Assembly (NCBI GenBank): GCA_036498905.1
Contig: DASYER010000075.1
Span: forward strand, 7,968 to 71,967
Reading direction: 5' to 3'
DNA length: 64,000 bases
Origin: Steroidobacteraceae bacterium
GTDB lineage: Bacteria > Pseudomonadota > Gammaproteobacteria > Steroidobacterales > Steroidobacteraceae
The notes below the pieces were generated by a model. That model did no database searches. It saw nothing but the letters and a program-made list of their open reading frames with translations, and was not told the origin of the DNA. The translations under genes and the position numbers were made by a program. Shown here one piece after another: positions 1 to 17,855 of this stretch (its first letter is position 1; each line of letters begins with the position of its first letter).

Positions 1-86
1 CGGTGTTCGTAGTCAAGTCCGTAGAGCCGCAGCGCAACAGCCACACGGCGAACGAACGGAGAGTCGAACTGGCCGATCAGGATCAT
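1..86 (-). CDS. glutathione S-transferase, N-terminal fragment (gene runs off the left edge)
   Basis: Minus-strand ATG at 84-86 with GGAG 7 nt upstream. It reads MILIGQFDSPFVRRVAVALRLYGLDYEH, a typical start of a thioredoxin-fold GST. Only 28 codons are visible. Confidence 0.45.
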   Translation of the reverse strand, partial: MILIGQFDSPFVRRVAVALRLYGLDYEH

Positions 87-193: not shown

Positions 194-844
194 TCAGGCC
201 TGGCGAGAATCGCCACCCCATCTTGCGACGGCTTCAGCGGTGGTTACGACCCGACCGAGGATGCCACCCTCACCCGCGATGCAGCTGAGCATTGCCTCAT
301 GGACCGATCTGTCGGCAGCAGCGCAGGCGTCCCCAACGGTCTGACATTCAAATCCGCGATCAACTGCCTCGCGAAGCGTCGAGTGCACACATATGTCTGT
401 CGTGACGCCCGCCAACGTCAATCCCGTAACTCCCCAGGCGCGCAGGACCAGCTCAAGGTCTGTCGCATAGAAGGCGCCGAATCCAGGCTTGTCGATGACG
501 ACCTCGGAGGGCAGTGGCAGAAGTTCATCGATGATTTCGTGTCCGTGTTCTCCGCGCACCAGCAGGCGACCAAGAGGACCCCGACTACCGATCGCCGCGC
601 CAACCTGAGCGGCGCGTCGGGCCTTGGTCGGATTAAGATCGGCCAGATCCGGGCGATGACCTTCGCGTGTGTGGACAATGCGAATACCGCCGGATCGCGC
701 AGCATCCAGGAGCCGCCGCACGTTGGGGATCGCCGCCCGCAGAATGCCAACATCGACCCCGCTTCGGGCGATGTAGCCCCCGAGGTCCAGGAAATCGCGC
801 TGCATGTCGATCACAATGAGCGCCGTTGTACCCGAGGACTTCAT
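194..844 (-). CDS. isochorismatase-fold cysteine hydrolase (216 aa)
   Basis: Start trimmed to the internal ATG (MKSSGTTALIVIDMQRDF), which overlaps the upstream stop as ATGA at 841-844. The D-K-C triad context is visible: IDMQRDF, VIDKPGFGAF, GVTTDICVHSTLREA. Confidence 0.85.
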   Translation of the reverse strand: MKSSGTTALIVIDMQRDFLDLGGYIARSGVDVGILRAAIPNVRRLLDAARSGGIRIVHTREGHRPDLADLNPTKARRAAQVGAAIGSRGPLGRLLVRGEHGHEIIDELLPLPSEVVIDKPGFGAFYATDLELVLRAWGVTGLTLAGVTTDICVHSTLREAVDRGFECQTVGDACAAADRSVHEAMLSCIAGEGGILGRVVTTAEAVARWGGDSRQA

Positions 845-1842
845 ACGGCCGTCAAAAATGAGACGCCGACCGCCCCGAGGAAGCCGCTCGCGCGCTGGCG
901 CCCGTCGGCCACCGAGCCGTAGTCTTCCGCCAAAATACGCTCGACCCGGTAGCGGTGGTAGTTCGCGATCAGATCGCGACACGGCATGACCTGGCGATTT
1001 TCCTCGCCGTAGAGTTCCCGGTGCAGAGCCGGCAGCCCGTACCAAGGGACGCCAGTCTTGGTGTGATGCGCGTTGTGATACGGGAAATTCAGTACCAGGA
1101 GATTGAGCCAAGTCCAACGGGTCGCCAGCAGATTCGAGTAAGTATTCTCGTATTCGTACAGCCGCGTACGACGCGGATCGGGCGGAGCCGGAGCCAGCGA
1201 CTGCGAGGGAAACACCTCATAAGTGTGCTGGAAGGCATCCATGAAGCGTAGCACCTGGAGGAATATGAGATAGGAGAGCGCATACAGCATGAGTGCCTTC
1301 ACCGATACCAGCGCCAACGCAGCCCACAACGCCATTCGCACCACCAACAGGCTCACAGTGCGAGTCCGGTCGCGCAGCGTCCCATGGCGAACAGGTACCA
1401 CAACGATCATCGCGCGCATCAGGAACTCCACGACCGGGATATAGGCCCATTCGAGCACCAGCACCGCTCGCCGAATCCATAACGGTGCGCGCCTGAGAAC
1501 AGCCCGATAGTCAAAGGTCACGACGTCCAGCCGGTCCGTGTGATGGCGCAGATGCTTAATTTTCAGCCTCTGATAGTCCGCCAGGCATGATCCGTTTATC
1601 CAGCTCATCAGCATGCCGAGCCGATCGTTGGACACGATGCGGGCGAAGACATTCTGATGAACGCATTCATGAATCATGTACGCTGAAGAGATGAGCGCAT
1701 GGGCTGTCAGGAGCACGCCGACGACATTCACGAGGAACTCGGGACGTGTCAGCAACCACACTCCAAGCGCCCAGCCTACAAAGGTGTATGCAATCATGAC
1801 TGCATTGGGCCAAGCACCCGTTCCCCGAAACAGCCGATTCAT
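841..1842 (-). CDS. fatty-acid-desaturase-family membrane di-iron enzyme (333 aa)
   Basis: Three histidine boxes are present: HECVH, HLRHH and HNAHH. Several hydrophobic helices. The start lies 2 nt after the upstream stop. Confidence 0.85.
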   Translation of the reverse strand: MNRLFRGTGAWPNAVMIAYTFVGWALGVWLLTRPEFLVNVVGVLLTAHALISSAYMIHECVHQNVFARIVSNDRLGMLMSWINGSCLADYQRLKIKHLRHHTDRLDVVTFDYRAVLRRAPLWIRRAVLVLEWAYIPVVEFLMRAMIVVVPVRHGTLRDRTRTVSLLVVRMALWAALALVSVKALMLYALSYLIFLQVLRFMDAFQHTYEVFPSQSLAPAPPDPRRTRLYEYENTYSNLLATRWTWLNLLVLNFPYHNAHHTKTGVPWYGLPALHRELYGEENRQVMPCRDLIANYHRYRVERILAEDYGSVADGRQRASGFLGAVGVSFLTAV

Positions 1843-1844
1843 CG

Positions 1845-2846
1845 CTATTCTCCCGGATGGGCCTGTAGAGTGGTGACAAAGGACGCATCGAAGGTTGCTT
1901 CGATCGGGGGTGGAGTTCGAATCTGCCCTTCGCGCTTCAGAATCTCACCGATAATGCTGCCGCTCGCGTAAAACGACGGCAACACGGACGTCTTCTTGAA
2001 CACATCACCGAGTTGAGCCAGGGGTGGGTTTTCGACGTTCTGGAGCTGGGCCTTGACATCAGCAACACTGAGTCCGAGCGCGCGGCCGATGAGGCTGGCA
2101 GCTTTATCCGGCTCGCGGCTCATGAATTCCAGTCCGTCCAAGGTGCCCCGGATCAGTGCCTGAACGAGCTGCGGATTCTTGGCAATGGTCTCCTGCCTGA
2201 AGGCGAGCACGTCAGTGATCAGTCCGCGCGCCTCGCGCGAGGACAGCAGCACGTGGAACTGATTGCCCCCGCCCACTTTTCGAATCATCGACACACTGGG
2301 CTCATAGGTCACGCCGGCATCCACCGCACCGCTCGCCATGATCGCGACGACCCCCTCGGGCGTGGAATTAACCGTGCGGACGTCACTCTGGGAAAGCCCG
2401 GCCTGTGCCAAAGCGTATCCGAGGAGAAAGTCCGATGGCGATGAAGGTTGGAAAGCGACCTTGCGGCCCTTCAGGTCCTTGACGGTGCGGATGGCGGTGC
2501 TTGCAAGGATCGCATCTCCGCCGACAGAATAATCGAGCGGCATCACAACCTTCAGATTCCATCCCTTGGATACCGAGCTGATCACCTGGTCGTAAGTCAG
2601 GGTGGAGGCCCCGAGCTCACCACCCTCAAGTGCGCCCGTCATCAGTGAGTTGTCACTGAAAGTGACGAGCTTCACGTCCCAACCATACTTGCGGTAGTAG
2701 CCATTTGCCGCAGCACAATACAGCGGACCATAGCCAATCCAGTTGACTACGCCAAGACTGACGTGTTCCATGGCGCCGCTGACTCGGGGCGTTGTTATCA
2801 GGGTCAAAGCGGCTGCGACCCAGCCGATAATTGCCAAGCGCATCAT
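1845..2846 (-). CDS. ABC transporter substrate-binding protein, NMT1/NitT-TauT type (second copy)
   Basis: Start trimmed to MMRLAIIGWVAAALTLITTPRVSGA (signal peptide). It is a paralog of the 5956-6957 product, sharing the Y+KYG.DVKLV.F pattern. Confidence 0.8.
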   Translation of the reverse strand: MMRLAIIGWVAAALTLITTPRVSGAMEHVSLGVVNWIGYGPLYCAAANGYYRKYGWDVKLVTFSDNSLMTGALEGGELGASTLTYDQVISSVSKGWNLKVVMPLDYSVGGDAILASTAIRTVKDLKGRKVAFQPSSPSDFLLGYALAQAGLSQSDVRTVNSTPEGVVAIMASGAVDAGVTYEPSVSMIRKVGGGNQFHVLLSSREARGLITDVLAFRQETIAKNPQLVQALIRGTLDGLEFMSREPDKAASLIGRALGLSVADVKAQLQNVENPPLAQLGDVFKKTSVLPSFYASGSIIGEILKREGQIRTPPPIEATFDASFVTTLQAHPGE

Positions 2847-2854
2847 AATAAGTG

Positions 2855-4324
2855 TTACTCCTCGACATTGATGCCCGCCGCCAGCAGCTGCTGCCTCAAT
2901 GGCTCGAGCTGCTGCGCGTAGTGACGCCACTCCCCGACAGCCGTGGCATAGAGTGGTCGGCGCACCTGGACGGCACTCGCGGTCGTGGTGGCCGTGGTAT
3001 TCGAATGAAACTGCATGCAGCCCTGCTCCCACTCGAGGCCGCAGAACTCGAGTAAACGCTGCGTTTGCGTCTGTTGGTCAGCGACTAATGCCTCGTACCT
3101 CAGCTCGTGAATGCATCCCGGTAACGTCGCGCGCCAGTGATCCATCAAGCGACGATATGCGACGTAGTAGCTTCCGATCTCCTCGAGGTCATACGAGAAA
3201 GGATAGCCGTCCTTGAACAAGGTCTTGAACATTGCATAGCAGGCTGCCATTGGGCTACGCCGCACGTGTACGATTCGCGCGTGCGGAAGCGCACGCTGGA
3301 TCAGCCCGCAATACAAATAGTTCAGCGGCATTTTGTCAGTGAAGAGCTGGGCGGTCATGCCGGCGGCGCGAACGCGCGATAGGTAGTTACGCCCGAGGCG
3401 CCCAAAGTCAATGTCCGCAGACTGCCTCACGAGCTCACGGCGTGCCGGCGGACTACGGCCGTTGCCCGCCACGCCCGCAACAGCCGCGACTACACCCAAC
3501 GCGAAATGCGGCAATTCGCCGCCCGCGCGCACGGCCGAATGACTGCCGAGAATCCGCTCCAAAAGAGTGCTGCCGCTGCGTGGCAGGCCCACGATGAATA
3601 TCGGCGTGCCATCAGCGCTTTTGATGGCGGCCGACGCGGCTGCGGCCGCTGCCTTGGCCAACCACACTTTCGGATATGCTTCGATGATCCAGTCTACGGT
3701 TGCGACATCCATTCCAACGTCGTATCGCAGGTGCTCACGCCGCGCCCGCGCCCCGCGCGCCAGGTGCTCGAAGGACCGACTGTACTGCCCGAGATCCTCG
3801 TACTCCTTGGCTAGTGCGTAGCGCAGCGCCACCTCTCCGTGCCAACCCGTCTCACCTAGGGCAAGTCGTGCCTCCAGTTCCACCGTGTGATTGCGCTCTG
3901 AACTCTGCCGCCGCAACTCCGAGCGGTTAAGATAGGCTTCATAATCTTCGGGCTTCTGGCGAATCACGCGATCGTAGTCGCGTTCGGCGCCGTCCAGATC
4001 TCCCAGGAAGCGACGCACTGCCGCGCGGTTGAATGTGAAATGCGGCTCATCGGGCGCCAGCGCAATCGCCTGTTCAAAGGCTGCCAGCGCGCGTGGCTGG
4101 TCACTTGCCCTGGTGAAGAGATTGCCAATGGCATCAAGCACCGCCGCGTCCGTGGAGGCGCGACGTTGCGCGGCAGCGGCCGCCTCACACGCCCTGCTGA
4201 CCTGGCCCAGCGCCAGCAGGCACTGCGCCCGCTGCAGCAGCAGGCGCGGATTGTCCGGGGCGCGCCGCAATGCCGATTCAGTCTGGAGCAACGCCTCCGT
4301 CGCACTGGCCGGAGCGTGCGTCAT
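2855..4324 (-). CDS. TPR-repeat protein fused to a sulfotransferase domain (489 aa)
   Basis: The N-terminal ~200 aa consist of TPR-like helical repeats. The C-terminal domain carries the PAPS 5'-phosphosulfate loop GLPRSGSTLLERILGSH. The ATG overlaps the ATPase stop (ATGA at 4321-4324). Confidence 0.8.
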   Translation of the reverse strand: MTHAPASATEALLQTESALRRAPDNPRLLLQRAQCLLALGQVSRACEAAAAAQRRASTDAAVLDAIGNLFTRASDQPRALAAFEQAIALAPDEPHFTFNRAAVRRFLGDLDGAERDYDRVIRQKPEDYEAYLNRSELRRQSSERNHTVELEARLALGETGWHGEVALRYALAKEYEDLGQYSRSFEHLARGARARREHLRYDVGMDVATVDWIIEAYPKVWLAKAAAAAASAAIKSADGTPIFIVGLPRSGSTLLERILGSHSAVRAGGELPHFALGVVAAVAGVAGNGRSPPARRELVRQSADIDFGRLGRNYLSRVRAAGMTAQLFTDKMPLNYLYCGLIQRALPHARIVHVRRSPMAACYAMFKTLFKDGYPFSYDLEEIGSYYVAYRRLMDHWRATLPGCIHELRYEALVADQQTQTQRLLEFCGLEWEQGCMQFHSNTTATTTASAVQVRRPLYATAVGEWRHYAQQLEPLRQQLLAAGINVEE

Positions 4325-5160
4325 GCCCGTGCAACCACTGAGGGCGAAAGCCGCTGCAAGAGTTCGAAATCTGTGCGCATGCCGGATGTCTGGCGAATCC
4401 GGTCAAGGACCCGCAGGCGCAATGCCAGGAATTCCGCCGAGTATTTCATGGCCAATGAACGGTTCGCCGGAAGCGGCACTTCATAGATCGAGTCTATGCG
4501 ACCCGGCTTTGGCGCCATCAGAACCACACGGTGGCCAAGATAGATCGCCTCCTCCACATCGTGCGTCACAAATACGACGGTGCAGCCCTCGAGCGCCGAC
4601 ACATGGAGGATGAGATCGTGCATGACCTCGCGGGTTTGCGCGTCCAGCGCTCCAAATGGTTCGTCCATGAGCAGAATGCGCGGCCGCGTCATAAGCGCGC
4701 GCGCAATCGCGACTCGCTGCTGCATTCCTCCGGATAGTTCCGAAGGGAAAGCGTCGGCCGCGTGGGTCAATCCCATGACACGAAGCAGTGCGTCGGCCCG
4801 ACCCGAGGCCGCCTCGACATCAGAGCTGGTACGGTCACGCGTATGCGCCGTGAGCTGTCGCGGAAACTTGATATTGTTGATCACCGAGAGCCACGGATAA
4901 AGGCTGTAGTCCTGGAATACCATCGCGCGGTCGGCGCCCGGTGCGACAACGGGCGCTCCCGCTGCCTCCAGATGACCCGCCGTCTGTGTCTCAAGTCCGG
5001 CCAATATCCGCAGCAGGGTCGATTTTCCACAACCCGATGCCCCCACGAGCGTCACGAACTCTCCCTGCGTGACATCCAGACACACGTTATCAAGTGCGGT
5101 CACGCGGGCCCGGCCTTCACCGAACACCTTGCACACCGACCGACAGCTGATGATGGCCAT
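4321..5160 (-). CDS. ABC transporter ATP-binding protein (NitT/TauT family)
   Basis: Walker A GASGCGKST, signature LSGGMQQR, Walker B LLMDEPFGALD. Start trimmed to MAIISCRSV, 1 nt after the permease stop. Confidence 0.9.
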   Translation of the reverse strand: MAIISCRSVCKVFGEGRARVTALDNVCLDVTQGEFVTLVGASGCGKSTLLRILAGLETQTAGHLEAAGAPVVAPGADRAMVFQDYSLYPWLSVINNIKFPRQLTAHTRDRTSSDVEAASGRADALLRVMGLTHAADAFPSELSGGMQQRVAIARALMTRPRILLMDEPFGALDAQTREVMHDLILHVSALEGCTVVFVTHDVEEAIYLGHRVVLMAPKPGRIDSIYEVPLPANRSLAMKYSAEFLALRLRVLDRIRQTSGMRTDFELLQRLSPSVVARA

Positions 5161-5161
5161 G

Positions 5162-5959
5162 TCAGTTCCGGACGTGCAGGTAGGGGAAAGAGAGCCGATG
5201 GATGAGTCGGAACCCCTGATCCATCGCCAGGCCGATCGCACCGATGAGCACGATGCCGGCAAATATCTTGTCGGTCTGCAAGAACCGTTGCGCTTTGATG
5301 ATGGCGTATCCGAGCCCCGAATTTGCAGCGACGAGTTCAGCCACGACCAGGTAAGTCCACGCCCAGCCCATGGTGACGCGCAAGGTGTCGAGAAGGGCCG
5401 GCTTGGCCGACGGGACGATGACCTTTTCGATCACTTCGCAACGCGTCGCGCCCATCGTCTGAGCCGCCTCGATCTGGGCCATCGGCACACGTCGAACATC
5501 TTCCGCCACCATCAGTACCATCTGAAAGAAGGTACCGATGAATATGATCGCCACCTTGGCCGGCTCTTCGATCCCGACCCAAAGCATCACCAGGGGGATG
5601 AAGGCCACCGCCGGCATGTAGCGTACGAAATCGGTAAGCGGCTCCAGCAGTGCCTGCACCACACGGAAGGACCCGATCAGGAGCCCCAGGGGCATGGCGA
5701 TAAGCGCCGACAGGGCCCAGCCGGCGGTCACTCTGAAGGTACTGATGAGAATGTCGTCAACCAGGTGATCGTCGCTGAACCAGGTTGCAGCACGCTGCAG
5801 CACATCGATTGGACCCGGAAGGAAGACTCGATTGACTGATCCGAATAGCGTCAGCACCGTCCAGAGCGCGAGCGGCACGATGAGACCGACGGCCGCCAGC
5901 ATCCAGTAGCTTCGCTGGCTCAGCCGGCCGCGAATCTTCCATGCCGAGCGCCCGTTCAT
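5162..5959 (-). CDS. ABC transporter permease (NitT/TauT family)
   Basis: 265 aa with about 6 TM segments and a BPD-transporter EAA-like loop (IEAAQTMGATRCEVIEKVIVPSAKP). ATGA overlap with the upstream gene. Confidence 0.9.
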   Translation of the reverse strand: MNGRSAWKIRGRLSQRSYWMLAAVGLIVPLALWTVLTLFGSVNRVFLPGPIDVLQRAATWFSDDHLVDDILISTFRVTAGWALSALIAMPLGLLIGSFRVVQALLEPLTDFVRYMPAVAFIPLVMLWVGIEEPAKVAIIFIGTFFQMVLMVAEDVRRVPMAQIEAAQTMGATRCEVIEKVIVPSAKPALLDTLRVTMGWAWTYLVVAELVAANSGLGYAIIKAQRFLQTDKIFAGIVLIGAIGLAMDQGFRLIHRLSFPYLHVRN

Positions 5960-6957
5960 GGCTTCGCGGCCGACGCTGAAGCCGCCCCGGCGGCGATCGC
6001 TGCGTCAATCAGGGAATGATCCACGCCCTTGGCAGCATCGGGCTGTCCATCAATGAGCTTATTTGCCAACAGAAATGCCCCGATGTTGGGAGCCACGCGC
6101 ACCAGACTGCGTGGGCTCTTCGGATCGAATGCCTCCAAATTGGCCGCCGCATCGAAGAAGCGCGTTCCAGGCAGGAAGACACGGTACTGCTCGGGCGACA
6201 TGCTGACGATCCGCGACATGATGGCGACGGCCCGATCCGGTTGCGCGCGGATGAACGCTTCGGTATCAAACCATGCCCGCACCATCCCGATGAAGTCCTT
6301 GCGTTTGCTCTGCAGTGATCGCTCCTGGGCGACCAACAGATCCGGAATCAGCCCCGGCATCTGCGCTGAGCTGAACAGCGGCACCCCCTTGCCGCTCTTT
6401 TGAATCTGGCTGATCCAGGGATTCCACACGACTGCCGCGTCCACTCTGCCACTCATGAACGCCGCGGCGGCGTCACCCGCTGACAGATTCACTACCGTGA
6501 CATCCGTTGGGCTCAACCCATTGCGCGCCAGCGCCGTGTAGAGCACGAAGTGCGAAACACTGTATTGCTCCAGCGCAACGGTGTGATGGCGTAGATCCGC
6601 AAAGGTCTTGATCTTCGGGCCCACCAGTAGTGCGTCGTTGCCTGCGGAATTGTCGTTGACGAGTACCGCCTTCAGCGGCAGCCCCTTGGCAAGGGGCCCC
6701 AGGGTGTCTGACCAGGTCTGGCTGTTGGCATCCAATTGGCCGCTGGAAAGTGCGGAAATGGAATCACTGTAATTGGCAAACCAAACAAGTTTTACGTCCG
6801 CCCCGTATTTGCGGAAGTACCCTTGATCCTGTGCCACATACCAGGCTACCCATCCAGTCCAATCGGAAACACCGACTTTGATCTGTGCGTGGGCCGGCAA
6901 CACTGCAACCGCCGCCATAAGCAGCGGGCCAACGAGAATTCGAGTCAGGCGATTCAT
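5956..6957 (-). CDS. ABC transporter substrate-binding protein, NMT1/NitT-TauT type
   Basis: Signal peptide MNRLTRILVGPLLMAAVAVLPAHAQ and an NMT1-like periplasmic domain. ATGA overlap with the allophanate hydrolase stop. Confidence 0.85.
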   Translation of the reverse strand: MNRLTRILVGPLLMAAVAVLPAHAQIKVGVSDWTGWVAWYVAQDQGYFRKYGADVKLVWFANYSDSISALSSGQLDANSQTWSDTLGPLAKGLPLKAVLVNDNSAGNDALLVGPKIKTFADLRHHTVALEQYSVSHFVLYTALARNGLSPTDVTVVNLSAGDAAAAFMSGRVDAAVVWNPWISQIQKSGKGVPLFSSAQMPGLIPDLLVAQERSLQSKRKDFIGMVRAWFDTEAFIRAQPDRAVAIMSRIVSMSPEQYRVFLPGTRFFDAAANLEAFDPKSPRSLVRVAPNIGAFLLANKLIDGQPDAAKGVDHSLIDAAIAAGAASASAAKP

Positions 6958-8765
6958 GGGGAGGCTCCGGATGTTTGGGCGGTCGCGGCCGATCGGGAGA
7001 TATAGGCGCGCCAGCCGCCGTCGGCCGTGATGTCGAGAGCACCGATGATCGCGCGGGGCTCGGCGACAAATCCCTTGACGCTTGAGCCGTCCGCCAGCAG
7101 GACAGTGCCGATGGCCAGCGGCGCTGGCACTTCGTTCACGAAGCTGCCGAAGCCGGCAAGGTCCAGCTCGTAGATCTCAGTTTCGATGGCAGCGCCGCCG
7201 GCGCCCGCATGCACCAGCGCCGGTTTTGCCGGAGTCTGGGCGGTCATCGCGTAAAGCCGATATACCGGTGCGGTGCGGGTATGTTGGATCAGACGAGCGC
7301 ACCGCGAACTCAACTGCCAATGCAATGGCATGCCGGACAGGTGAGCGCCGACTACCGCCAGCTGGACTCGCGCCGGCCGCGATTGTGTATCGAGCGGCGG
7401 CACCGGGAACTTCAAGCACGGGGTGTAGCGCCCGGCAAGTGCAAGCAGGTTGGCATCAGCCCACGCGGGACCGATGAGGCTCATACCCACACCGGTCGCG
7501 TTGCTGCGGAACCCGGCGGGCAGGGCGATGGCGCTCATGTCCAGCAGGTTCACGAAGTTGGTGTAGACCCCGAGCTGCGCGTTGAGCTCATAGGGTTCCG
7601 CGAGTACCTCACTCAGTCGATAAATCGTCGGAGTCGTCGGCAGTAGGAGCACGTCGATCCGTTCCCACAACTCTTCGGCTATCCGAGCGTAACCCTGCTG
7701 GGCGTACAAGCCGCGGAACGCATCGACGGCGGACAGGCCCTTCGCGGCCTGGAGGATGGAACGGACCACCGGATGGATGGTGTTCGGATGGTTCTGCAGC
7801 ATCTCATCCGCCACGGCAACGCGCTCGGCCACCCAGGGCCCGCCATAGAGCAGACGCGCTGCCTGAATCAGAGTTGCCACATCGACGACCACGGGGCTGC
7901 CGCCGATGGCTTGCAGCCCGGCGCTGGCGGCGGCATAGCATCGCGCATCGTCAGGCGCCAGGTCGGCCAGCTGCCCCTGCTGTGGTATGCCAAAACGAAA
8001 TCGCGCGCCAATCGAAGGTCCACGGGACGGCGCACGCCTCGCAAAGGAGTCCTCCGCGTCGAACCGCGCGAGCACGGCATCAACGAGCGCCGCATCGGCG
8101 GCATTGGTCGTCAGGGTCGAGATACAGTCCAGGCTCCGGCAGGCGGGCACGAGGCCGCGCGTACTCCAGCGGCCGCGCGTGGGTTTGAAGCCAACGAGAT
8201 GATTAAAGGCCGCGGGTACGCGTCCGGACCCAGCGGTATCGGAACCCAGGGCCAACGGTACGATGCCTGCGGCAACGGCCACCGCAGAACCGGAGCTGGA
8301 CCCACCACTTATGAACTCACGATTGAAAACGCAGCCCACTGCACCGTACGGACTGCGCGTCCCGACCAGTCCGGTGGCGAACTGATCAAGGTTGGTCTTG
8401 CCCAGTACGATCGCGCCGGCCGCTGTCAGATGCTCGATGACCGTGGCGGAGCGCTCAGGGCGGTAGGCGAAGCGCGGGCAGCCAGCCGTCGTCGCCAGAC
8501 CCACCACATCGATGTTGTCTTTGACCGCAACGGGCACACCGGCCAGCGCCAGCACCTCCCCGGCCGCAATCCTTCTGTCGATGATCTCTGCCTGCGCCAG
8601 AAGCTCTGACTCGGCCGGACGGTCGATCCATACTTGGGGTTGAATCTTGTCGTAAGCGCGCGCGCGAGCGAGAGACTCGCCCACGACCGCGGTGGCGCTG
8701 CGTGTACCGCTATTCACATCTCGAGCAATCGTGGTCACGCTCCATTCCTGGTCACGTCCGTCCAT
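6954..8765 (-). CDS. allophanate hydrolase (603 aa)
   Basis: Amidase signature GGSSSGSAVAVAAG and a Ser-cisSer-Lys context, plus the extra ~120-aa C-terminal domain typical of allophanate hydrolases. Start trimmed to MDGRDQEW, 1 nt after the carboxylase stop. Confidence 0.9.
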   Translation of the reverse strand: MDGRDQEWSVTTIARDVNSGTRSATAVVGESLARARAYDKIQPQVWIDRPAESELLAQAEIIDRRIAAGEVLALAGVPVAVKDNIDVVGLATTAGCPRFAYRPERSATVIEHLTAAGAIVLGKTNLDQFATGLVGTRSPYGAVGCVFNREFISGGSSSGSAVAVAAGIVPLALGSDTAGSGRVPAAFNHLVGFKPTRGRWSTRGLVPACRSLDCISTLTTNAADAALVDAVLARFDAEDSFARRAPSRGPSIGARFRFGIPQQGQLADLAPDDARCYAAASAGLQAIGGSPVVVDVATLIQAARLLYGGPWVAERVAVADEMLQNHPNTIHPVVRSILQAAKGLSAVDAFRGLYAQQGYARIAEELWERIDVLLLPTTPTIYRLSEVLAEPYELNAQLGVYTNFVNLLDMSAIALPAGFRSNATGVGMSLIGPAWADANLLALAGRYTPCLKFPVPPLDTQSRPARVQLAVVGAHLSGMPLHWQLSSRCARLIQHTRTAPVYRLYAMTAQTPAKPALVHAGAGGAAIETEIYELDLAGFGSFVNEVPAPLAIGTVLLADGSSVKGFVAEPRAIIGALDITADGGWRAYISRSAATAQTSGASP

Positions 8766-8766
8766 T

Positions 8767-11700
8767 TCAAGCTTGCTCCGTAGTCGGTGCAAAAACGTCC
8801 GGTTCCAGTGCAATGAGCGCCGTGCCGGGTGCAATTGCCTGGCGTTCCTGGATATAGACTGCGCGTACAATTCCGGCAACGGGACTCGGCACACTGCACT
8901 CCGTCTTCATCGATTCGATTGCGGCAATCATCACGCCCTTCTCGAGTCGATCTCCCACCCGCACGGCGATGCGCCAGACGTTCCCGCCGAGCGGTGATTC
9001 CACGAGCTCGCAGCCAAGCGGCACGGTTGGGATTCCTGCATCAATGTTCTCGGGCGCGGACCCTTCCGGTGACAGTTCGCTGCGTTTGACCCAGGCTTCC
9101 CGTTCCGCCTCAAAGGCCGCGCCGCGTGTTCGTTGGAAGGACTCGATGCCAAAACGCTCCTCGTGCAGGAAGCGCTGGTAGTCCGCCAGCCGAAAGGTCT
9201 CGGTCTCGATATGCAAAGCGCGCCTGCCGACCGGGAAGTCACGCCGCCAGTCATTGAGCTCGGCGTGAGACACGGGAAAGAAGCGGATTTGATCGAAGAA
9301 GCGCAGCAGCCAGGGATGCTCGAGGAATTCGCCGCTTCGCCGGTAAGAGCTCCACATTTGCACCGTGCGTCCAAAAAGCTGATACCCGCCCGGGCCCTCC
9401 ATGCCGTAGATGCACAGATATGCACCTCCGATGCCAACTACATTCGGGGGAGTCCAGGTTCTTGCCGGGTTGTACTTCGTGGTGACCAGACGGTGACGTG
9501 GGTCGAGGGGCACGGCCACGGGCGCGCCGAGATAAACATCCCCCAGACCGAGAACCATGTAGCGCGCCGCGAATACAATGCGTTGAACGTCCTCCACCGA
9601 GGAGAGCCCATTGATGCGTCGGATGAACTCAATGTTGTCCGGGCACCAGGGCGCATCCGCGCGCACCGTACTCATATAGCGCTCGATCGTCTCGCCAACC
9701 GCCGGATCCGCAAAGGAAAGCGGCAGCCACACGATGCGCGAGGGGATCTCGAAATCCTGCAAACTGCCCAGGCGTGCCTCGCAATCACCCAGGTCGCGCA
9801 GCAATTTATCTAGTGACAGTACGTCCGGGTCATAGTGAATCTGCAGGGAGCGGATGCCCGGTGTCACCTCGAGGATGCCCGCTAGCCTGAGACGCTCCAG
9901 CTCCAGCATCAGGGCATGTACGCGCAAGCGCAGGGTGAGATCGAGGACGATTGGGCCGTATTCGACGAGTAGGTGCCGATCGCCCTGGCGACGATACAGC
10001 GTTCTGGGGCAGGACCCCCGTTCCTCAACAGTCCCCAGGACGGCACCGCTGCTCGAATGCGCCCTCGTGCCGCGTGCCGGCAGCTTCTCAGCGATATCCG
10101 CGTCGCGCATCGGGGCCCCTGCAATCCATGCCTTCTGCGCCTGCTCCGCCGCGCGCGCCGTCGACGCATCGACGCATTCGAATTGCACACTGTCCCCCGG
10201 GGCGAGCTGACCCAGCTTCCACAGATCCGCACTGATCACGACAAAGGGACAGACGAACCCTCCAAGCGAGGGGCCGTCCGGGCCCAGAATGATGGGCATG
10301 TCGCCCGTGAAATCGACGGCCCCCACCACATAGGCATTGTCGTGAATATTCGAAGGGTGAAGACCCGCCTCCCCGCCATCGCGGCGTGCCCACTGAGGTT
10401 TTGGTCCAAGGAGGCGCACGCCGGTGCGATTGGAGTTGTAGTGGACCTTCCATTGCGCACCCAAGATCGCGTCAATGTCCGCATCCGTGAAGAAATCCGG
10501 CGCGGCGTGCGGACCGGACAGCACACGCACACTCCATTTGTGAGTGAGTGCCGGCACCCTCGGAGCCTTTATCGTCAACTCTGGCCGCGCGTTGGAGGTC
10601 TGAGGGCGGTGAGATCCGAGATGCAGGACATCACCTGCCGCGAGATTGCGTCCCGCATGCCCTCCGAAGCGACCGAGCGTAAAGGTCGAGCGGCTGCCGA
10701 GGTACGGCGGCACTTCGATGCCCCCCGCAATGAGCACGTAGGCGCGCAAGCCGGGGCCACGTATACGTCCCAGTTTCAGAGTCTGGCCCACCTCGACAGT
10801 AGTCACGCGGTACGGCTCCAGTAAGGAACCATCCAGCCGCGCTTCGGCGTCCGCGCCTGCCAAGCATACGGCAGCGCGACTGCCGAACTGCAGGGTTGGA
10901 CCGATTGCCGTGACCTCAAGTCCCGGCGCCCCTTCGGAATTGCCGAGGAGACGATTACCGAGACGAAATGCGAGGCTATCCATCGGCCCGGATGGGGGGA
11001 CTCCAACGTTCCAGTATCCCCGCCGCCCCGGGTAGTCCTGAATGCTGGTGTCCAGTCCGCCGCTTAGCACGTGCACTGCCACGGAGGCATAGGGTAGGTC
11101 GGCCAGCGCCCGGGTCGTCACCCTGCCTGAAACGAACATCTCGCTGTGAGCGATCTGCTTCAACCGTTCCAGATTGGTCTCAAGACCCGCCAGGTGCGTC
11201 CTACCCAGGGCAAGCTGTAGGGCTCTCACCGTCGTTGCACGATCGGCCCCCGTGACAATGATTTTCGCGAGCAACGGATCGAAATGTGTGGTGACTTCCG
11301 TGCCCAACGTCACCCACGTCTCCAGGCGAATGTCGCTGGGCCACTCAACCTCGGTCAGCGTACCGCTGCTCGGACGATTCCCCTCGCTTGGATCTTCGGC
11401 GTACAGGCGCGCCTGAATGGCCCAGCCGCGCGCGCGCGGCGCCTTCTGCGGCGTGCTCCAGGTATCTAGAAAGGAGTAGTCCCCGCCGGCGCCTCGAACC
11501 ATCCACTCTATAAGATCGACCCCCGTAATTTCCTCCGTGACCGCGTGCTCGACCTGCAGGCGAGTGTTGACTTCAAGAAAATAGAATTCCTCGCGCGCCG
11601 GATCCAGCAGGAACTCCACCGTACCGGCAGAGCGATACTCGACGGCCGAGGCCAGGCGGATGGCGCACGCGGCCAGCGCAGTGCGTACTTCGGGTGCGAG

Positions 11701-12435
11701 ATGTGGCGCCGGCGCTTCTTCGATGACTTTCTGGTGGCGCCGCTGCAACGAGCAATCACGCTCACCCAATGCCACGACCCGACCGCTGCCGTCACCGAAG
11801 ATCTGAACCTCTACGTGACGCGCTTCGGGCAGCAACCGCTCGAGGTACATGCCCGCGTCGGCAAAATGACCGGCCGCGAGCCGCGAGACGACCGGAAATG
11901 CCTCCTCCAGGGCGCGCATGTCCTCGCAGGCGCGCATGCCGATGCCGCCACCCCCACCAGTCGCCTTGAGCATGACCGGAAAGCCGATGCCGCGCGCCGC
12001 CGCGCACGCAGCTGCCAGGTCCCTGAGCAGCTCCGAGCCCGGCACCAGCGGCACGGACTGTGCCCGCGCTATCGCGCGCGCCCGATGCTTGAGGCCAAAG
12101 GCCCGCATGTTCTTTGGCGTTGGGCCAATGAAGGTCAGTCCGGCCCGCTCGCACTGCTCAGCAAAATCCGCGTTCTCGCTTAAGAAGCCATATCCCGGAT
12201 GAATGGCTTGCGCACCAGTATGTTGAGCCGCGGCAATCATCGCCGCACCGTTGAGGTAACCGGCGCTGCCCTGGGAGCCGCCAAGACATACCGCCTCGCC
12301 GGCCTGCGCGACATGCAACGACCCGGCGTCCGATTCCGTGAAGACGGCCACGGACGCGACGCCCAGGCGGCGCAGAGTACGCAGTATCCGGCAGGCAATT
12401 GCGCCGCGATTGGCAATAAGCACCTTCTCAAGCAC
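8767..12435 (-). CDS. biotin-dependent urea/guanidine carboxylase (1222 aa)
   Basis: N-terminal biotin carboxylase (MLEKVLIANRGAIACRILRT, ATP-grasp), a central KipA/KipI-like carboxyltransferase region, and a C-terminal biotinyl domain with IESMKTE. Confidence 0.95.
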   Translation of the reverse strand: MLEKVLIANRGAIACRILRTLRRLGVASVAVFTESDAGSLHVAQAGEAVCLGGSQGSAGYLNGAAMIAAAQHTGAQAIHPGYGFLSENADFAEQCERAGLTFIGPTPKNMRAFGLKHRARAIARAQSVPLVPGSELLRDLAAACAAARGIGFPVMLKATGGGGGIGMRACEDMRALEEAFPVVSRLAAGHFADAGMYLERLLPEARHVEVQIFGDGSGRVVALGERDCSLQRRHQKVIEEAPAPHLAPEVRTALAACAIRLASAVEYRSAGTVEFLLDPAREEFYFLEVNTRLQVEHAVTEEITGVDLIEWMVRGAGGDYSFLDTWSTPQKAPRARGWAIQARLYAEDPSEGNRPSSGTLTEVEWPSDIRLETWVTLGTEVTTHFDPLLAKIIVTGADRATTVRALQLALGRTHLAGLETNLERLKQIAHSEMFVSGRVTTRALADLPYASVAVHVLSGGLDTSIQDYPGRRGYWNVGVPPSGPMDSLAFRLGNRLLGNSEGAPGLEVTAIGPTLQFGSRAAVCLAGADAEARLDGSLLEPYRVTTVEVGQTLKLGRIRGPGLRAYVLIAGGIEVPPYLGSRSTFTLGRFGGHAGRNLAAGDVLHLGSHRPQTSNARPELTIKAPRVPALTHKWSVRVLSGPHAAPDFFTDADIDAILGAQWKVHYNSNRTGVRLLGPKPQWARRDGGEAGLHPSNIHDNAYVVGAVDFTGDMPIILGPDGPSLGGFVCPFVVISADLWKLGQLAPGDSVQFECVDASTARAAEQAQKAWIAGAPMRDADIAEKLPARGTRAHSSSGAVLGTVEERGSCPRTLYRRQGDRHLLVEYGPIVLDLTLRLRVHALMLELERLRLAGILEVTPGIRSLQIHYDPDVLSLDKLLRDLGDCEARLGSLQDFEIPSRIVWLPLSFADPAVGETIERYMSTVRADAPWCPDNIEFIRRINGLSSVEDVQRIVFAARYMVLGLGDVYLGAPVAVPLDPRHRLVTTKYNPARTWTPPNVVGIGGAYLCIYGMEGPGGYQLFGRTVQMWSSYRRSGEFLEHPWLLRFFDQIRFFPVSHAELNDWRRDFPVGRRALHIETETFRLADYQRFLHEERFGIESFQRTRGAAFEAEREAWVKRSELSPEGSAPENIDAGIPTVPLGCELVESPLGGNVWRIAVRVGDRLEKGVMIAAIESMKTECSVPSPVAGIVRAVYIQERQAIAPGTALIALEPDVFAPTTEQA

Positions 12436-12447
12436 GCCTCACACCCA

Positions 12448-13095
12448 TCAGCGCTGGCCCATGCCGGAGGCGACAAGAATCCGCACGGGCGAGGGATTAA
12501 ATCCGTTGCATGGATTGTTCACTTGCGGGCAGTTGGAAATGACGGCTACGACGTCCATCAACATCTCCAGATCCACATAAAGGCCCGGAGCCGAAATTCC
12601 GTCGACGATTCCCAAAGTGCCATCCGCCTCAACCGGCACGTTCATGAACCAATTGATATTCGACACGATGTCGCGCTTGGTTCGACCGCGGCGCGCATTC
12701 GCCAGCAGAAAATTCTCTACGCAGGCATGCTGCGATTTTGTGTGATAGCCGTACCGCAGCGTATTGCTCTCGCAACTGCACGCTCCGCCGATGGTGTCGT
12801 GGTAGGCGACAGTCGTTGCCGCAATCCGCGCCATGGCGCGACCTTCGTTCGACATCAGAACCGTCCCGGTGCGCAGGAATATGTTCTGTTGTTCGCAAAT
12901 CGTGTCCTGCGCACTGTAGCGTTCCGTATCGTCATGTGCCGCATAGAGCAGGAAGTCGACCGCCTGGTTGCCTTCGATGTCGAGGATGCGCAGTGTCTGG
13001 CCCGCCTGTACGAGGTGATCCCAGGCCCCGCGCGCAGGAATCACCTCGTCGAGCAATATTTCTCGCAATAGCCCCGCACTGGTGGATTTGCTCAT
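12448..13095 (-). CDS. DUF1989 protein, urea-carboxylase-associated type 2 (carboxyguanidine deiminase subunit candidate)
   Basis: 215 aa, directly upstream of the carboxylase with a 12 nt gap. Size and position match the UAAP2 member of the conserved pair. Confidence 0.8.
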   Translation of the reverse strand: MSKSTSAGLLREILLDEVIPARGAWDHLVQAGQTLRILDIEGNQAVDFLLYAAHDDTERYSAQDTICEQQNIFLRTGTVLMSNEGRAMARIAATTVAYHDTIGGACSCESNTLRYGYHTKSQHACVENFLLANARRGRTKRDIVSNINWFMNVPVEADGTLGIVDGISAPGLYVDLEMLMDVVAVISNCPQVNNPCNGFNPSPVRILVASGMGQR

Positions 13096-13143
13096 GGCGC
13101 AGAACCATCCAACTTCTCAGGTCCGTGCAAATTGTGTGCAATC

Positions 13144-13974
13144 TCAGCGACGGAAGTACTCCTCGACATTGAGGAAAGCCCGCATTGCTTCGGGCGTCGC
13201 ATTACGCACTTCATCTTCGCCGTCTGCGATCGGGCCCCGCCAGGCGCAAACCCGGACCGGCGTAACGGCATAGTCCGGGCGTGCATCCAGCACATGCGGA
13301 CAATTGGCCATTACAATGATGACGTCCATTTCGGCACGCAGCGTAAGTGCCCGGCCTGACGCGAACGGGCCGGCTTGCAACATCGTGGTGCCGTCAGGCG
13401 CAATCTGCACCGATTTGAACCAGTTGATGCAGGGATGCACATCCTTCGCACCAAGGCCGAACTTCGCGGCGCCCAGCAATAGCCGATCACGTGCGGCCGG
13501 GGTGTCGCTCCAGTTGGCTCCGCTGCCGTATCTTCTGGCGTTAGTGCGTTCGTTCGAAGGCCCGCAGAACGCGTCATGGGTTCGGGCCTCGTCTTCGAGG
13601 ATGCTGAGAAGAACTCTGCCCATGTCGGAAAGCAGCACCCGACCCGCTTGTAGTTCCGCCGTCCACTGCACTTTGAGCGTATCGGCGACATTCAGTCGCT
13701 CATCCGGCCGCTCGGCATTGAAGATCAGCATCGACACGCACGCATCCCCGTGTAAGTCGATGAGACGCAATCGCGCACCCCGCCCGAGTTCCTTGGCGGC
13801 GTAGCCGCCCGCTCCGAGGGTTTCCTCCCAGAGCATGCTCCCGGCGGCGACCCCATCGGGAAGATCCGTACTGTTGCTCGCCGGTACCGTAGGCATGGCC
13901 TGCACCCGCATGTCTGCCATGGACCGCGCGTGCGCGCGTGCGCTTTTTGGATCGGCGGTGGCGGATTCCTTCAT
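13144..13974 (-). CDS. DUF1989 protein, urea-carboxylase-associated type 1 (carboxyguanidine deiminase subunit candidate)
   Basis: 276 aa paralog of the next gene, in the UAAP1 position. The ATG lies 13 nt after the TonB-receptor stop with AAGGCGGGG upstream. Confidence 0.8.
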   Translation of the reverse strand: MKESATADPKSARAHARSMADMRVQAMPTVPASNSTDLPDGVAAGSMLWEETLGAGGYAAKELGRGARLRLIDLHGDACVSMLIFNAERPDERLNVADTLKVQWTAELQAGRVLLSDMGRVLLSILEDEARTHDAFCGPSNERTNARRYGSGANWSDTPAARDRLLLGAAKFGLGAKDVHPCINWFKSVQIAPDGTTMLQAGPFASGRALTLRAEMDVIIVMANCPHVLDARPDYAVTPVRVCAWRGPIADGEDEVRNATPEAMRAFLNVEEYFRR

Positions 13975-13987
13975 GTGCCCCGCCTTG

Positions 13988-16618: not shown

Positions 16619-16740
16619 TGCCGATGGACCTCCTAGCACAAGCCGTTGCCCGACATGCGAGGAGCGTCGTGAATTCGGTATCGGGGCAACCACCGCGACG
16701 GAGATCGTCCCGAAGGCCATCACTGGCTCCTCGCAACCCA

Positions 16741-16850
16741 ATCTCCCGGGCTTTTATCCCGCCGTGTATCCAAGTCGCTTTACTGCGCTCCTGGACTGCC
16801 TCTCTCGGACCAGACACCCGTTTCAGCAACAGGCCGGAACCCTAGACGCA
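16741..16850 (-). promoter_or_regulatory. ykkC: guanidine-I riboswitch aptamer (ykkC-yxkD class, subtype 1)
   Basis: The minus strand reads CUAGGGUUCCGGC..UGGUCCGAGAG..ACACGGCGGGAUAAAAGCCCGGGAGA, i.e. all three near-invariant blocks in the right order and spacing over about 105 nt. The gene context (carboxylase, allophanate hydrolase, NitT/TauT ABC) is the classic one. Confidence 0.9.
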
Positions 16851-16851
16851 C

Positions 16852-16881
16852 ATTTCAACTATTCCATGCACTCCGTTGCAA
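16852..16881 (-). promoter_or_regulatory. candidate sigma-70 promoter for the riboswitch transcript
   Basis: Minus strand: TTGCAA (16876-16881), an 18-nt spacer, then TGAAAT (16852-16857). This would place the transcription start at the first aptamer nucleotides. Called by eye only. Confidence 0.25.
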
Positions 16882-17084: not shown

Positions 17085-17855
17085 ATGGGACTTCAGATTG
17101 CGAACCGATGGTTCGAGTTCGAGCGCGTTAGTGATGGCATCACGCGCATTTGGGAGCCTCACGTCATCAGGGTCATGCAATGCAATGTCTGGCACGTGCG
17201 GGGGCGAGACCGCGACCTCATTATCGATACCGGAATGGGGCTCAGCAGTCTCACGTGTGCGGCCGCGGATGTGTTTTCCAAGCCGCTCACCGCCGTCGCG
17301 ACACACACTCATCTGGATCATGTGGGCTCATTGCATGAGTTTTCGGAGCGTGTCGTGCACATCTCCGAGGCTGAGCGCCTGACGCGGCCGTCCGATAACT
17401 TCAGCATGCTGCGCGAGGATCACACGGTGGAGTTCATCGCTGCATTGGAGCATGCCGGGTACGAAGTCGGTGACACTTTCATTACCGCCCTTCCGTGCGC
17501 GGATTTCAATCTACGGAAGTTCGCGTGTCCGGCGGCACCGGCGACGCGCGTAGTACGGGAGGGCGACGTGCTCGACTTGGGAGACCGGGTGTTTGAAATA
17601 CTGCACTTGCCAGGACATTCGCCCGGAAGCATCGGCTTGTGGGAGGCAGCGACGCGGATCTTCTTCTCCGGTGATGCCATTTATGATGGACCACTACTCG
17701 ATGAATTGCCCGGCAGCGACATCGCCGTTTACACGGCAACCATGCGACGAATTGAAACACTGCCCGCGCGCGTGGTGCACGCGGGCCATGATCCCAGCTT
17801 TGGCGGCGCACGGTTGCGAGAGCTCGCCAGAGCGTATCTCCAGCGACGCTCCTAA
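17085..17855 (+). CDS. MBL-fold metallo-hydrolase (256 aa)
   Basis: HxHxDH motif THTHLDHVGS and a later HLPGHSPGS. Start trimmed to ATG 17085 (MGLQIANRWFEF), because the longer ORF would run across the riboswitch region. Confidence 0.85.
   Translation: MGLQIANRWFEFERVSDGITRIWEPHVIRVMQCNVWHVRGRDRDLIIDTGMGLSSLTCAAADVFSKPLTAVATHTHLDHVGSLHEFSERVVHISEAERLTRPSDNFSMLREDHTVEFIAALEHAGYEVGDTFITALPCADFNLRKFACPAAPATRVVREGDVLDLGDRVFEILHLPGHSPGSIGLWEAATRIFFSGDAIYDGPLLDELPGSDIAVYTATMRRIETLPARVVHAGHDPSFGGARLRELARAYLQRRS

Follow-up and report, generated by a model that had tools for sequence, protein, structure and literature searches.

Demethylation of methylguanidine is known from Vreelandella boliviensis, in which MgdH, a 2-oxoglutarate dioxygenase, and MgdL, an N-(hydroxymethyl)guanidine lyase, carry out the reaction and are encoded in the guanidine carboxylase operon (PMC12508155). 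A second described system, the plasmid-borne, insertion sequence-flanked cassette of pMET-2 from Pseudomonas mendocina MET, has genes for a binding protein, BguH, GuuH, an ABC permease and an ABC ATPase in that order (PMC9800807, PMC11647477); the origin of BguH is unclear according to its authors (PMC11647477). Here we compare with these systems a 64,000-nucleotide stretch of DNA from a Steroidobacteraceae bacterium (contig DASYER010000075.1, positions 7,968 to 71,967), referred to below as the window. It contains a guanidine carboxylase operon that ends in four further genes, encoding a TPR-containing sulfotransferase (ST), a second NMT1-type binding protein (SBP2), a membrane di-iron protein of the FA_desaturase superfamily (DES) and an isochorismatase-fold cysteine amidohydrolase (ICH). 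SBP2 and DES form a conserved pair within the guanidine regulon. We propose, with moderate confidence, that the tail extends the set of substrates open to a riboswitch-controlled nitrogen-scavenging operon, modified guanidines being imported and turned into guanidine via DES.

The Four-Gene Tail of the Guanidine Operon

The minus strand of the window from 194 to 16856 is occupied by a single, tightly packed array of 12 genes, headed by a guanidine-I (ykkC) riboswitch (16741-16856, minus strand) that scored 87.6 bits with Rfam RF00442 (gathering score 63) and 92.4 bits with R1, a covariance model of our own. An earlier note on this DNA had described the last four genes as joined to the ABC ATPase gene, and to one another, by junctions of -4, 8, 2 and -4 nt, and this is what we read from the sequence, with all four open reading frames on the minus strand and embedded in the operon. 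The TGA stop of the ATPase gene (4323-4321) overlaps the ATG of ST (4324-4322) as an ATGA of 4 nt, the TAA of ST ends at 2855 and the ATG of SBP2 starts at 2846 (gap of 8 nt), the TAG of SBP2 ends at 1845 and the ATG of DES starts at 1842 (gap of 2 nt), and the TGA of DES (843-841) overlaps the ATG of ICH (844-842), again as a 4-nt ATGA. With the aptamer at the head of the same array and such tight junctions, we place the tail in the guanidine-I riboswitch regulon, as a presumed part of the same transcription unit. A consensus scan of the operon returned no promoter-like sites and only chance-level terminator-like matches, and was uninformative.

Profile hidden Markov models placed all four proteins above Pfam gathering scores. 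ST (2855-4324), predicted to be cytoplasmic, matched Sulfotransfer_3 (PF13469; 157.9 bits, threshold 27) together with TPR families; SBP2 (1845-2846), predicted to be secreted, matched NMT1 (91.1 bits); DES (841-1842) matched FA_desaturase (PF00487; 113.5 bits, threshold 29.7); and ICH (194-844) matched Isochorismatase (PF00857; 148.5 bits, threshold 27). The motifs cited in the earlier note were present in the translations, namely GLPRSGSTLLERILGSH in ST and the three His boxes HECVH, HLRHH and HNAHH in DES.

The tail genes recurred on other Steroidobacteraceae-type contigs at 66-86% protein identity, and because the same tail is found there we consider the arrangement to be more than chance. 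The full tail on a guanidine operon was repeated in contexts where DES was 81% and 72% identical to that of the window, and a DES relative at 68% identity was encoded in a unit standing by itself, with genes for SBP2, DES, ICH, a permease and an ATPase. Close DES homologues came from Steroidobacteraceae metagenome-assembled genomes, and an ST identical at 100% is recorded from one such genome.

SBP2 and DES Across Genomes

When a single genome for each of 185,579 species was scanned with a DES alignment, 357 relatives were identified, and the best 80 of these loci were analyzed (numbered with the prefix L where individual loci must be told apart). They span Steroidobacteraceae, Acidocella, Acidithiobacillus, Thiomonas, Gallionellaceae and Sideroxydans, Thiobacillus, Rhodocyclaceae, other Burkholderiales, Pseudomonas and Halopseudomonas, and Gloeobacterales. 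SBP2 was encoded directly 5' of DES in 64 of the 76 loci that could be evaluated, in Alpha-, Beta- and Gammaproteobacteria alike. Genes for the guanidine-carboxylase route were present in 33 of the 80 loci and ICH in 46.

An Rfam guanidine-I aptamer above the gathering score was found in all nine loci tested, directly ahead of SBP2 in eight; in the other, the aptamer preceded a TonB receptor gene, and SBP2-DES came next. With a covariance model built from the Rfam-confirmed aptamers to locate the remaining riboswitches, a guanidine-I aptamer was identified directly 5' of SBP2-DES in 27 loci, and an aptamer plus receptor preceded the pair in seven more; any guanidine-I aptamer was present in 41/80. 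Conservation of the linkage across genomes, which the earlier note had wanted examined, can be stated as 56 of 80 loci in which DES is tied to a guanidine aptamer, to carboxylase genes or to both.

The suggestion in that note that the tail converts substituted guanidino compounds, such as an N-alkyl guanidine, into something usable by the core pathway is strengthened by the occurrence of SBP2-DES in three proteobacterial classes, by its own riboswitches and by its co-occurrence with MgdL (below). The accompanying idea that the four genes make up one processing route is not supported, and they are not a fixed unit: ST is confined to Steroidobacteraceae-type operons, and both ICH and DES can be found where the other is absent.

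SBP2 is 36% identical to SBP1, the binding protein of the core importer, and by inspection its N-terminus looks like a signal peptide. Its subfamily scores were below the cut-offs (TIGR01728, 120.7 vs. 163.5 bits; TIGR03427, 84.8 vs. 333.9 bits), and the nearest solved proteins, which bind sulfonates, taurine and nitrate (E ~1e-11), are uninformative as to its ligand.

DES as a Proposed Replacement of MgdH

The MgdL sequence from Supplementary Data 1 of PMC12508155 was used as a query, and a gene cluster without a Pfam match in 24 of the DES loci proved to be an MgdL homolog (tblastn E down to 1e-30). The catalytic residues D49 and R51 of MgdL were invariant in an alignment of 13 sequences. 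The published list of MgdL homologs includes proteins from Acidithiobacillus, Thiomonas, Gallionella, Halopseudomonas and Acidocella (PMC12508155). In an independent scan of metagenomes, which was anchored on MgdL and not on DES, 45 loci could be evaluated: 14 had MgdH only, 26 had DES only, none had both and five had neither. Since MgdL adjoins either MgdH or DES and never both, we infer from these gene neighborhoods that DES is a non-homologous replacement of MgdH as the hemiaminal-making enzyme, that is, an O2-dependent hydroxylase by which N-substituted guanidines would be dealkylated.

The clusters that carry both DES and an MgdL homolog vary in size. A minimal unit of SBP2-DES-MgdL joined to permease, ATPase and carboxyguanidine deiminase genes occurred in L132 and L142, with partial versions in L133 (SBP2 not detected) and L143 (sequence ends after MgdL). 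In the cultured Acidithiobacillus sulfuriphilus CJ-2 (L051), the order SBP2-DES-MBL-MgdL (MBL, metallo-beta-lactamase-fold protein) abuts the carboxylase operon, and no 2-oxoglutarate dioxygenase was found within 10 kb upstream. Riboswitch-controlled operons of Beta- and Gammaproteobacteria are longer, and that of L065 (1616-10922) encodes SBP2, DES, two SDRs, an EamA transporter, a creatininase (TIGR04448, 379 bits; cut-off 235), ICH, a lactonase-like MBL, an MgdL homolog, a permease and an ATPase, and none of its assigned genes encodes a 2-oxoglutarate dioxygenase. This type of operon may represent the bacterial route from creatinine to methylguanidine that is not known to have genes assigned to it. 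Similar extended operons were seen in L084, L060, L063, L081 and the metagenome loci L153-L170, often with a second DES paralog; a permease and an ATPase are present in L065 and L084.

Compared with the Vreelandella system, the likeness lies in accessory genes within a guanidine-I-riboswitch carboxylase operon, in the proposed conversion of a substituted guanidine to guanidine by hydroxylation and hemiaminal cleavage, and in the MgdL homologs with invariant D49 and R51 in 24 genome and 26 metagenome loci with DES. The differences are that the proposed hydroxylase is a membrane di-iron protein of the FA_desaturase fold and not a soluble 2-oxoglutarate/Fe(II) dioxygenase, that DES has a binding protein of its own, and that the window has no MgdL homolog. 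The MgdH-type gene of L096 carries the domains DIOX_N and 2OG-FeII_Oxy, the latter of which was not found in DES by Pfam. Functional equivalence of DES and MgdH would be an analogy and not family membership.

The eight His-box histidines of DES and H206 were invariant in 22 diverse members, and the clade is small: a search of 1.84 billion proteins gave 131 clusters at E <= 1e-30. Weak matches to CrtW were obtained for all 22 members and to GntB for 18 (the DES of the window scored 18.4 bits with the GntB model NF041365, cut-off 380). DES resembles GntB, the L-arginine gamma-hydroxylase of guanitoxin synthesis, and CrtW, a beta-carotene ketolase, in being a membrane di-iron His-box protein of a kind that includes enzymes acting on non-lipid or non-acyl substrates, which for GntB is a guanidino compound according to the family description. 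It is a member of neither family, scoring far under the cut-off and being equally distant from the lipid desaturase DesA; placement in the CrtW, DesA, GntB or CrtR family was rejected, the matches to each being remote and roughly equal. An AlphaFold2 model of low confidence (mean pLDDT, the predicted local distance difference test, of 55) has long helices at residues 11-31, 36-61, 121-153 and 156-208.

The sole plasmid-borne DES relative (37% identity) was in Gloeothece verrucosa PCC 7822 (L090; NC_014533.1, 634945-636048). It lies beside genes for an ectoine-synthase-like cupin, a GNAT protein, a tryptophan halogenase and an HpaB-type monooxygenase, in what resembles a natural-product cluster, a context that gives a weak hint of small-molecule chemistry.

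ICH, a Putative Enzyme of the Guanylurea Hydrolase Type

The top NCBIfam model for ICH was the biuret hydrolase BiuH (NF050097; E 2e-77), at 259.5 bits and hence below the equivalog cut-off of 370 bits, and the nearest solved structures, at E 5e-65 to 2e-55, were those of biuret hydrolases (6xjm and 6azo) and of the triuret hydrolase TrtA (6xix). ICH has the fold and the catalytic Asp-Lys-Cys triad of these enzymes in common (D13, the K of DKPG and the C of TTDICV, corresponding to D36, K142 and C175 of BiuH). It differs from them at two substrate-binding positions, K145 and Q215 of BiuH, which are needed for biuret hydrolysis (K145A is inactive and Q215A has lost more than 90% of its activity; PMC7948467) and which are Phe and Glu in ICH.

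A tblastn search of 72,556 plasmids found the three best matches to ICH at 62.5% identity, all on plasmids of metformin-degrading Pseudomonas that came from wastewater plants. The best was a gene of pMET-2 (CP098607.1, 20653-21288), pairwise 63.5% identical over 203 residues and closer to ICH than any BiuH-type plasmid gene. By its plasmid location, the adjacent nucleoside deaminase gene and the flanking insertion elements we matched this gene to BB_00025, the purified product of which hydrolyzed guanylurea at 11 umol/min/mg and acted on biuret at ~0.4 nmol/min/mg (PMC9800807); the adjoining deaminase is the biguanide hydrolase BguH (PMC11647477). The MET enzyme has Tyr and Glu at the positions of K145 and Q215. 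All 48 ICH proteins linked to DES likewise had an aromatic residue (Phe or Tyr) at the first position and Glu at the second, with the catalytic Asp, Lys and Cys retained. The replacement of a lysine by an aromatic and of a glutamine by an acidic residue would suit a positively charged guanidinium rather than an uncharged urea group. Because ICH is 63.5% identical to the tested enzyme and has the active-site signature in common with it, we classify ICH as a putative enzyme of the guanylurea hydrolase type. The earlier note's statement that none of the four genes has a known function in the pathway needs to be revised for ICH, which falls in the clade of biuret, triuret and guanylurea hydrolases and is nearest to a proven guanylurea hydrolase.

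The resemblance to the plasmid cassette extends beyond ICH. The stand-alone modules L004, L012 and L014 have the gene order of pMET-2 with DES in the BguH position, and the permease and ATPase of the window are 59 and 57% identical to those of the cassette. In contrast to the cassette, DES takes the place of the deaminase, the binding proteins are only ~30% identical, and the genes are chromosomal and riboswitch-controlled, not plasmid-borne and flanked by insertion sequences. In two riboswitch-controlled DES modules (L042, 17169-18513; L074, 7849-9193), genes for a pMET-2-like binding protein (51% identity) and a BguH-like deaminase of the CDA fold (53-54%) lie directly before ICH, and judged by this order and identity the arrangement appears to be the natural counterpart of the metformin-degradation cassette. 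A pMET-2-like binding protein (47%) was also encoded in L045 (6806-7681), where a deaminase was not found.

In the metagenome loci L104 and L105, a relative of ICH (54% identity) and an NMT1-type binding protein follow an MgdH-MgdL pair of the 2-oxoglutarate type; owing to this arrangement, a guanylurea-type hydrolase can be said to accompany both kinds of hydroxylase.

The Sulfotransferase and the TonB Receptor

The nearest solved sulfotransferase domains to ST were those of the protein-tyrosine sulfotransferases TPST2 (E ~1e-5) and TPST1. ST has a loop for binding the 5'-phosphosulfate, PRSGST (within GLPRSGST), presumably resembling the GVPRSGTT loop of TPST2. It differs from proteins of the TPST/RaxST type (Sulfotransfer_3) in being cytoplasmic, in its N-terminal TPR domain and in being encoded in a catabolic, riboswitch-controlled operon. 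ST was present in 15 of the 80 DES loci, and its orthologs (57-83% identity) always adjoin SBP2-DES or a riboswitch-controlled receptor gene; three further orthologs on long contigs (61-64% identity) lie between the ATPase or receptor gene and SBP2 and overlap the start of SBP2. As all of these loci are of the Steroidobacteraceae type, ST counts as a conserved, lineage-specific accessory that lies outside the core of the module. ST and an MgdL homolog were never found together (18 ST loci vs. 24 MgdL loci), a split that follows taxonomy.

The TonB-dependent outer-membrane receptor (13988-16741, minus strand) is encoded by the first gene 3' of the riboswitch and matched an NCBIfam TonB-siderophore subfamily at E 1.5e-29, under the cut-off. 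The order of riboswitch and then receptor was repeated in L012, L013, L018, L020, L024-L026, L028 and L029, and a receptor ortholog in L089 has Plug and TonB_dep_Rec_b-barrel domains. Because guanidine should not need such a receptor, its substrate is likely to be a scarcer or larger guanidino compound. The interval between receptor and SBP2 is variable: in L013 and L018 (~3400-8900) genes for an HpaB-like flavin monooxygenase, a DUF1028 protein and an NCS1 permease are inserted, and a variant in L026 (4300-6650) includes an ArgE-like M20 deacylase.

A Proposed Route and Its Alternatives

The substrates and reactions put forward here are deduced from gene order, family membership, riboswitch control and synteny statistics, which are the direct results of the analysis. 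In the route that we favor, the receptor and SBP2 would import one or more N-substituted guanidines, which SBP2 would pass to the permease and ATPase that it uses in common with SBP1. DES, acting as a presumably four-helix membrane di-iron oxygenase, would hydroxylate the carbon on the guanidino nitrogen, methylguanidine being the simplest case, and the resulting hemiaminal would decay to free guanidine and an aldehyde in a reaction analogous to the MgdH route in Vreelandella. ICH would convert guanylurea, or a close carbamoyl- or acyl-guanidine, to ammonia and carboxyguanidine or guanidine, as its identity and active-site signature suggest. The products of both enzymes would then enter the core encoded upstream (the guanidine carboxylase, the carboxyguanidine deiminase and the allophanate hydrolase), with the nitrogen released as ammonia. 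Because DES is found without ICH and ICH without DES, we lean toward regarding the two as parallel feeders of this core.

A number of observations weigh against this proposal. The ATGA coupling of DES and ICH is conserved in Steroidobacteraceae and could mean a sequential route. The window contains no homolog of MgdL (tblastn with the V. boliviensis MgdL and the L065 homolog, nothing below E 0.1), nor of creatininase, SDR, c3-type lactonase or EamA, and the assignment of its DES rests on 47-52% identity to DES proteins from clusters that contain MgdL. The division of loci into those with MgdH and those with DES tracks MgdL subclades and taxonomy, so that the counts given above are inflated by shared descent and are not independent events. 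DES had no solved relatives in a sequence search of the Protein Data Bank and, being equally remote from CrtW, DesA, GntB and CrtR, has no close characterized relative; its AlphaFold2 model (from an 11-sequence alignment), at the mean pLDDT given above, was left out of the fold search. No electron-donor gene (ferredoxin, rubredoxin or cytochrome b5) was seen in any DES cluster. ST and its TPR domain are unexplained by the model, and we know of no natural substrate of the guanylurea-type hydrolases. Finally, methylguanidine is not a ligand of the Vreelandella guanidine-I riboswitch (PMC12508155), in view of which induction would depend on the product.

Foremost among the alternatives is a single linear route, which we consider somewhat unlikely. 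A guanidino compound, once imported, would undergo one or two oxidation steps by DES, much as CrtW converts CH2 to C=O, and the carbamoyl- or acyl-guanidine so formed would be hydrolyzed by ICH to guanidine or carboxyguanidine. Such a sequence would accord with the ATGA overlap of DES and ICH in the window, L001, L002 and L005, with the presence of ICH in 42 of the 60 loci having at least 6 kb of sequence downstream of DES, with the location of DES in the slot of the guanylurea-producing BguH of the pMET-2 cassette, and with the two SDR genes that separate DES from ICH in many clusters of Beta- and Gammaproteobacteria and whose products could oxidize a hemiaminal to an amide. However, DES occurs without ICH in L015, L016, L023, L040, L051, L080, L088, L089, L132 and L142, ICH occurs without DES on pMET-2 and beside MgdH-MgdL in L104 and L105, and no natural precursor is known that oxidation would turn into guanylurea. 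Nor does the evidence show that sulfo-transfer, oxidation and hydrolysis, the combination named in the earlier note, follow one another in a single line.

We regard it as very unlikely that ICH works simply as a biuret or triuret hydrolase supplying allophanate to the allophanate hydrolase, in which case the tail would serve urea condensates and not guanidine derivatives. The top rank of the BiuH model, the solved structures nearest to ICH (6xjm, 6azo and 6xix) and the allophanate hydrolase encoded in the operon are all consistent with such a role. We nevertheless rejected ICH as a biuret hydrolase, its score being under the BiuH cut-off (259.5 vs. 370 bits) and both K145, essential for biuret hydrolysis, and Q215 being replaced; moreover, the MET guanylurea hydrolase, which has the same signature, barely uses biuret, and no plasmid gene of the BiuH type is as close to ICH in identity as the gene for that enzyme.

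Still less probable is that DES is a lipid desaturase or hydroxylase that remodels the membrane against chaotropic guanidinium, with SBP2 merely a second binder of guanidine. In its favor, Pfam assigns DES to FA_desaturase and its His boxes, of the forms HX3H, HX2HH and HX2HH, resemble those of acyl-lipid desaturases, the lack of a dedicated electron donor nearby is usual for such enzymes, and guanidine riboswitches are known to govern stress and export genes (PMC12186494). Against this, DES is as remote from lipid desaturases as from CrtW and GntB and forms a small, distinct clade (the 131 clusters mentioned above), its pairing with a secreted binding protein is strict, it is surrounded by genes for hydrolases, SDRs and MgdL homologs, and beside MgdL it and MgdH are mutually exclusive.

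That the tail genes are chance passengers at the end of the operon, functionally unrelated to guanidine, is scarcely credible: the tail does vary by lineage, ST is lineage-specific and the stand-alone Steroidobacteraceae modules L014-L016, L021 and L023 have no riboswitch or carboxylase genes within 21 kb, but the 56/80 loci that link DES to a guanidine riboswitch or carboxylase genes come from three proteobacterial classes, the riboswitch is immediately ahead of SBP2-DES in 27 loci, and the junctions are tight and overlapping.

Relation to Published Work and Implications

The accessory feeding of the carboxylase pathway by MgdH and MgdL, the guanylurea hydrolases and the pMET-2 cassette are already known. 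What is new here is that this familiar feeding logic would be run by a new type of enzyme with a dedicated binding protein, and that the combination is widespread and under riboswitch control. Among 7.7 million PMC papers and 0.34 million preprints we found none that places a gene of the desaturase family in guanidine operons or riboswitch regulons, and none that mentions the SBP2-DES pair; nothing was found that joins creatininase with a desaturase and an isochorismatase, or that links TPR sulfotransferases to TonB receptors.

Despite how widespread guanidine riboswitches are, it is still an open question where guanidine comes from in nature and which guanidino compounds bacteria can assimilate. 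The carriers of SBP2-DES include acidophiles, iron and sulfur oxidizers and abundant soil Steroidobacteraceae, and as carriers such as Acidithiobacillus sulfuriphilus CJ-2, Thiomonas delicata DSM 16361 and Acidocella aromatica DSM 27026 are in culture the proposed O2-dependent release of guanidine is directly testable. Should the favored proposal be correct, DES would be the non-homologous counterpart, and in these data the more frequent one, of the methylguanidine hydroxylase described in 2025, and the FA_desaturase fold would gain a small-molecule role in nitrogen scavenging. The modules would also offer a natural setting for guanylurea hydrolases, which are otherwise known only from metformin degraders.

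A more speculative extension, which taken as a whole we think unlikely, joins several of these strands: DES would found a new class of guanidine-dealkylating di-iron oxygenases, ST would replace the lyase, the extended operons would encode a creatinine route, and the modules would be the source of the metformin cassette. If this were so, then in the Steroidobacteraceae that have no MgdL, the ST fused to SBP2-DES would sulfate the unusually stable N-(hydroxyalkyl)guanidine hemiaminal, and departure of the sulfate would free guanidine. The Beta- and Gammaproteobacterial operons with DES, creatininase, two SDRs, a lactonase-like hydrolase, MgdL and a guanylurea-type hydrolase would encode the conversion of creatinine to methylguanidine and on to guanidine, a bacterial route that, to our knowledge, has long been known with no genes assigned to it. 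The metformin cassette of BguH, GuuH and an ABC importer would have been recruited from natural DES modules.

Other Genes of the Operon and the Window

The remaining genes of the array, all on the minus strand, encode the core pathway and its importer. The receptor gene is followed by those for the carboxyguanidine deiminase subunits, the DUF1989 proteins UAAP1 (13144-13974; TIGR03425, 287.4 bits, cut-off 206) and UAAP2 (12448-13095; TIGR03424, 319.3 bits, cut-off 285), and then by those for guanidine (urea) carboxylase (8767-12435; TIGR02712, 1724 bits, cut-off 1304) and allophanate hydrolase (6954-8765; NF006043, 768 bits, cut-off 487). The core ABC importer consists of the NMT1/SsuA-type binding protein SBP1 (5956-6957; Pfam NMT1; TIGR01728, 182.9 bits, cut-off 163.5), a permease (5162-5959; Pfam BPD_transp_1), 59% identical to that of the pMET-2 guanylurea cassette, and an ATPase (4321-5160; Pfam ABC_tran), 57% identical to its counterpart there.

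Beyond the 3' end of the array, a gene that looks like a glutathione S-transferase (GST; 1-85, minus strand; MILIGQFDSPFVRRVAVALRLYGLDYEH...) starts 108 nt 3' of ICH and runs off the window; it is not kept after ICH in related loci. In the remainder of the 64 kb there were no genes for ferredoxin or for synthesis of 3'-phosphoadenosine 5'-phosphosulfate, and no other obviously related genes. Neighbors without an evident link to the operon, between 17998 and 33582, include a large AAA+/LuxR-type regulator (17998-20685), an OPT oligopeptide transporter, an FAD-dependent aromatic-ring hydroxylase, two MacB-like permeases, a HupE/UreJ protein and a DUF3604 protein. Elsewhere, an Rfam ALIL pseudoknot, which is a frameshift element of insertion sequences, was identified at 113 bits ~2.4 kb 5' of the Thiomonas delicata module (L060, 6244-6360, minus strand).

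Divergent from the riboswitch, MBL2 (17085-17855, plus strand) matched only generic models of the metallo-beta-lactamase fold. It is unrelated to the lactonase-like MBL of other modules and is 68% identical to the product of a gene immediately after DES in L089 (12499-13272), and it is a possible associate of the module.

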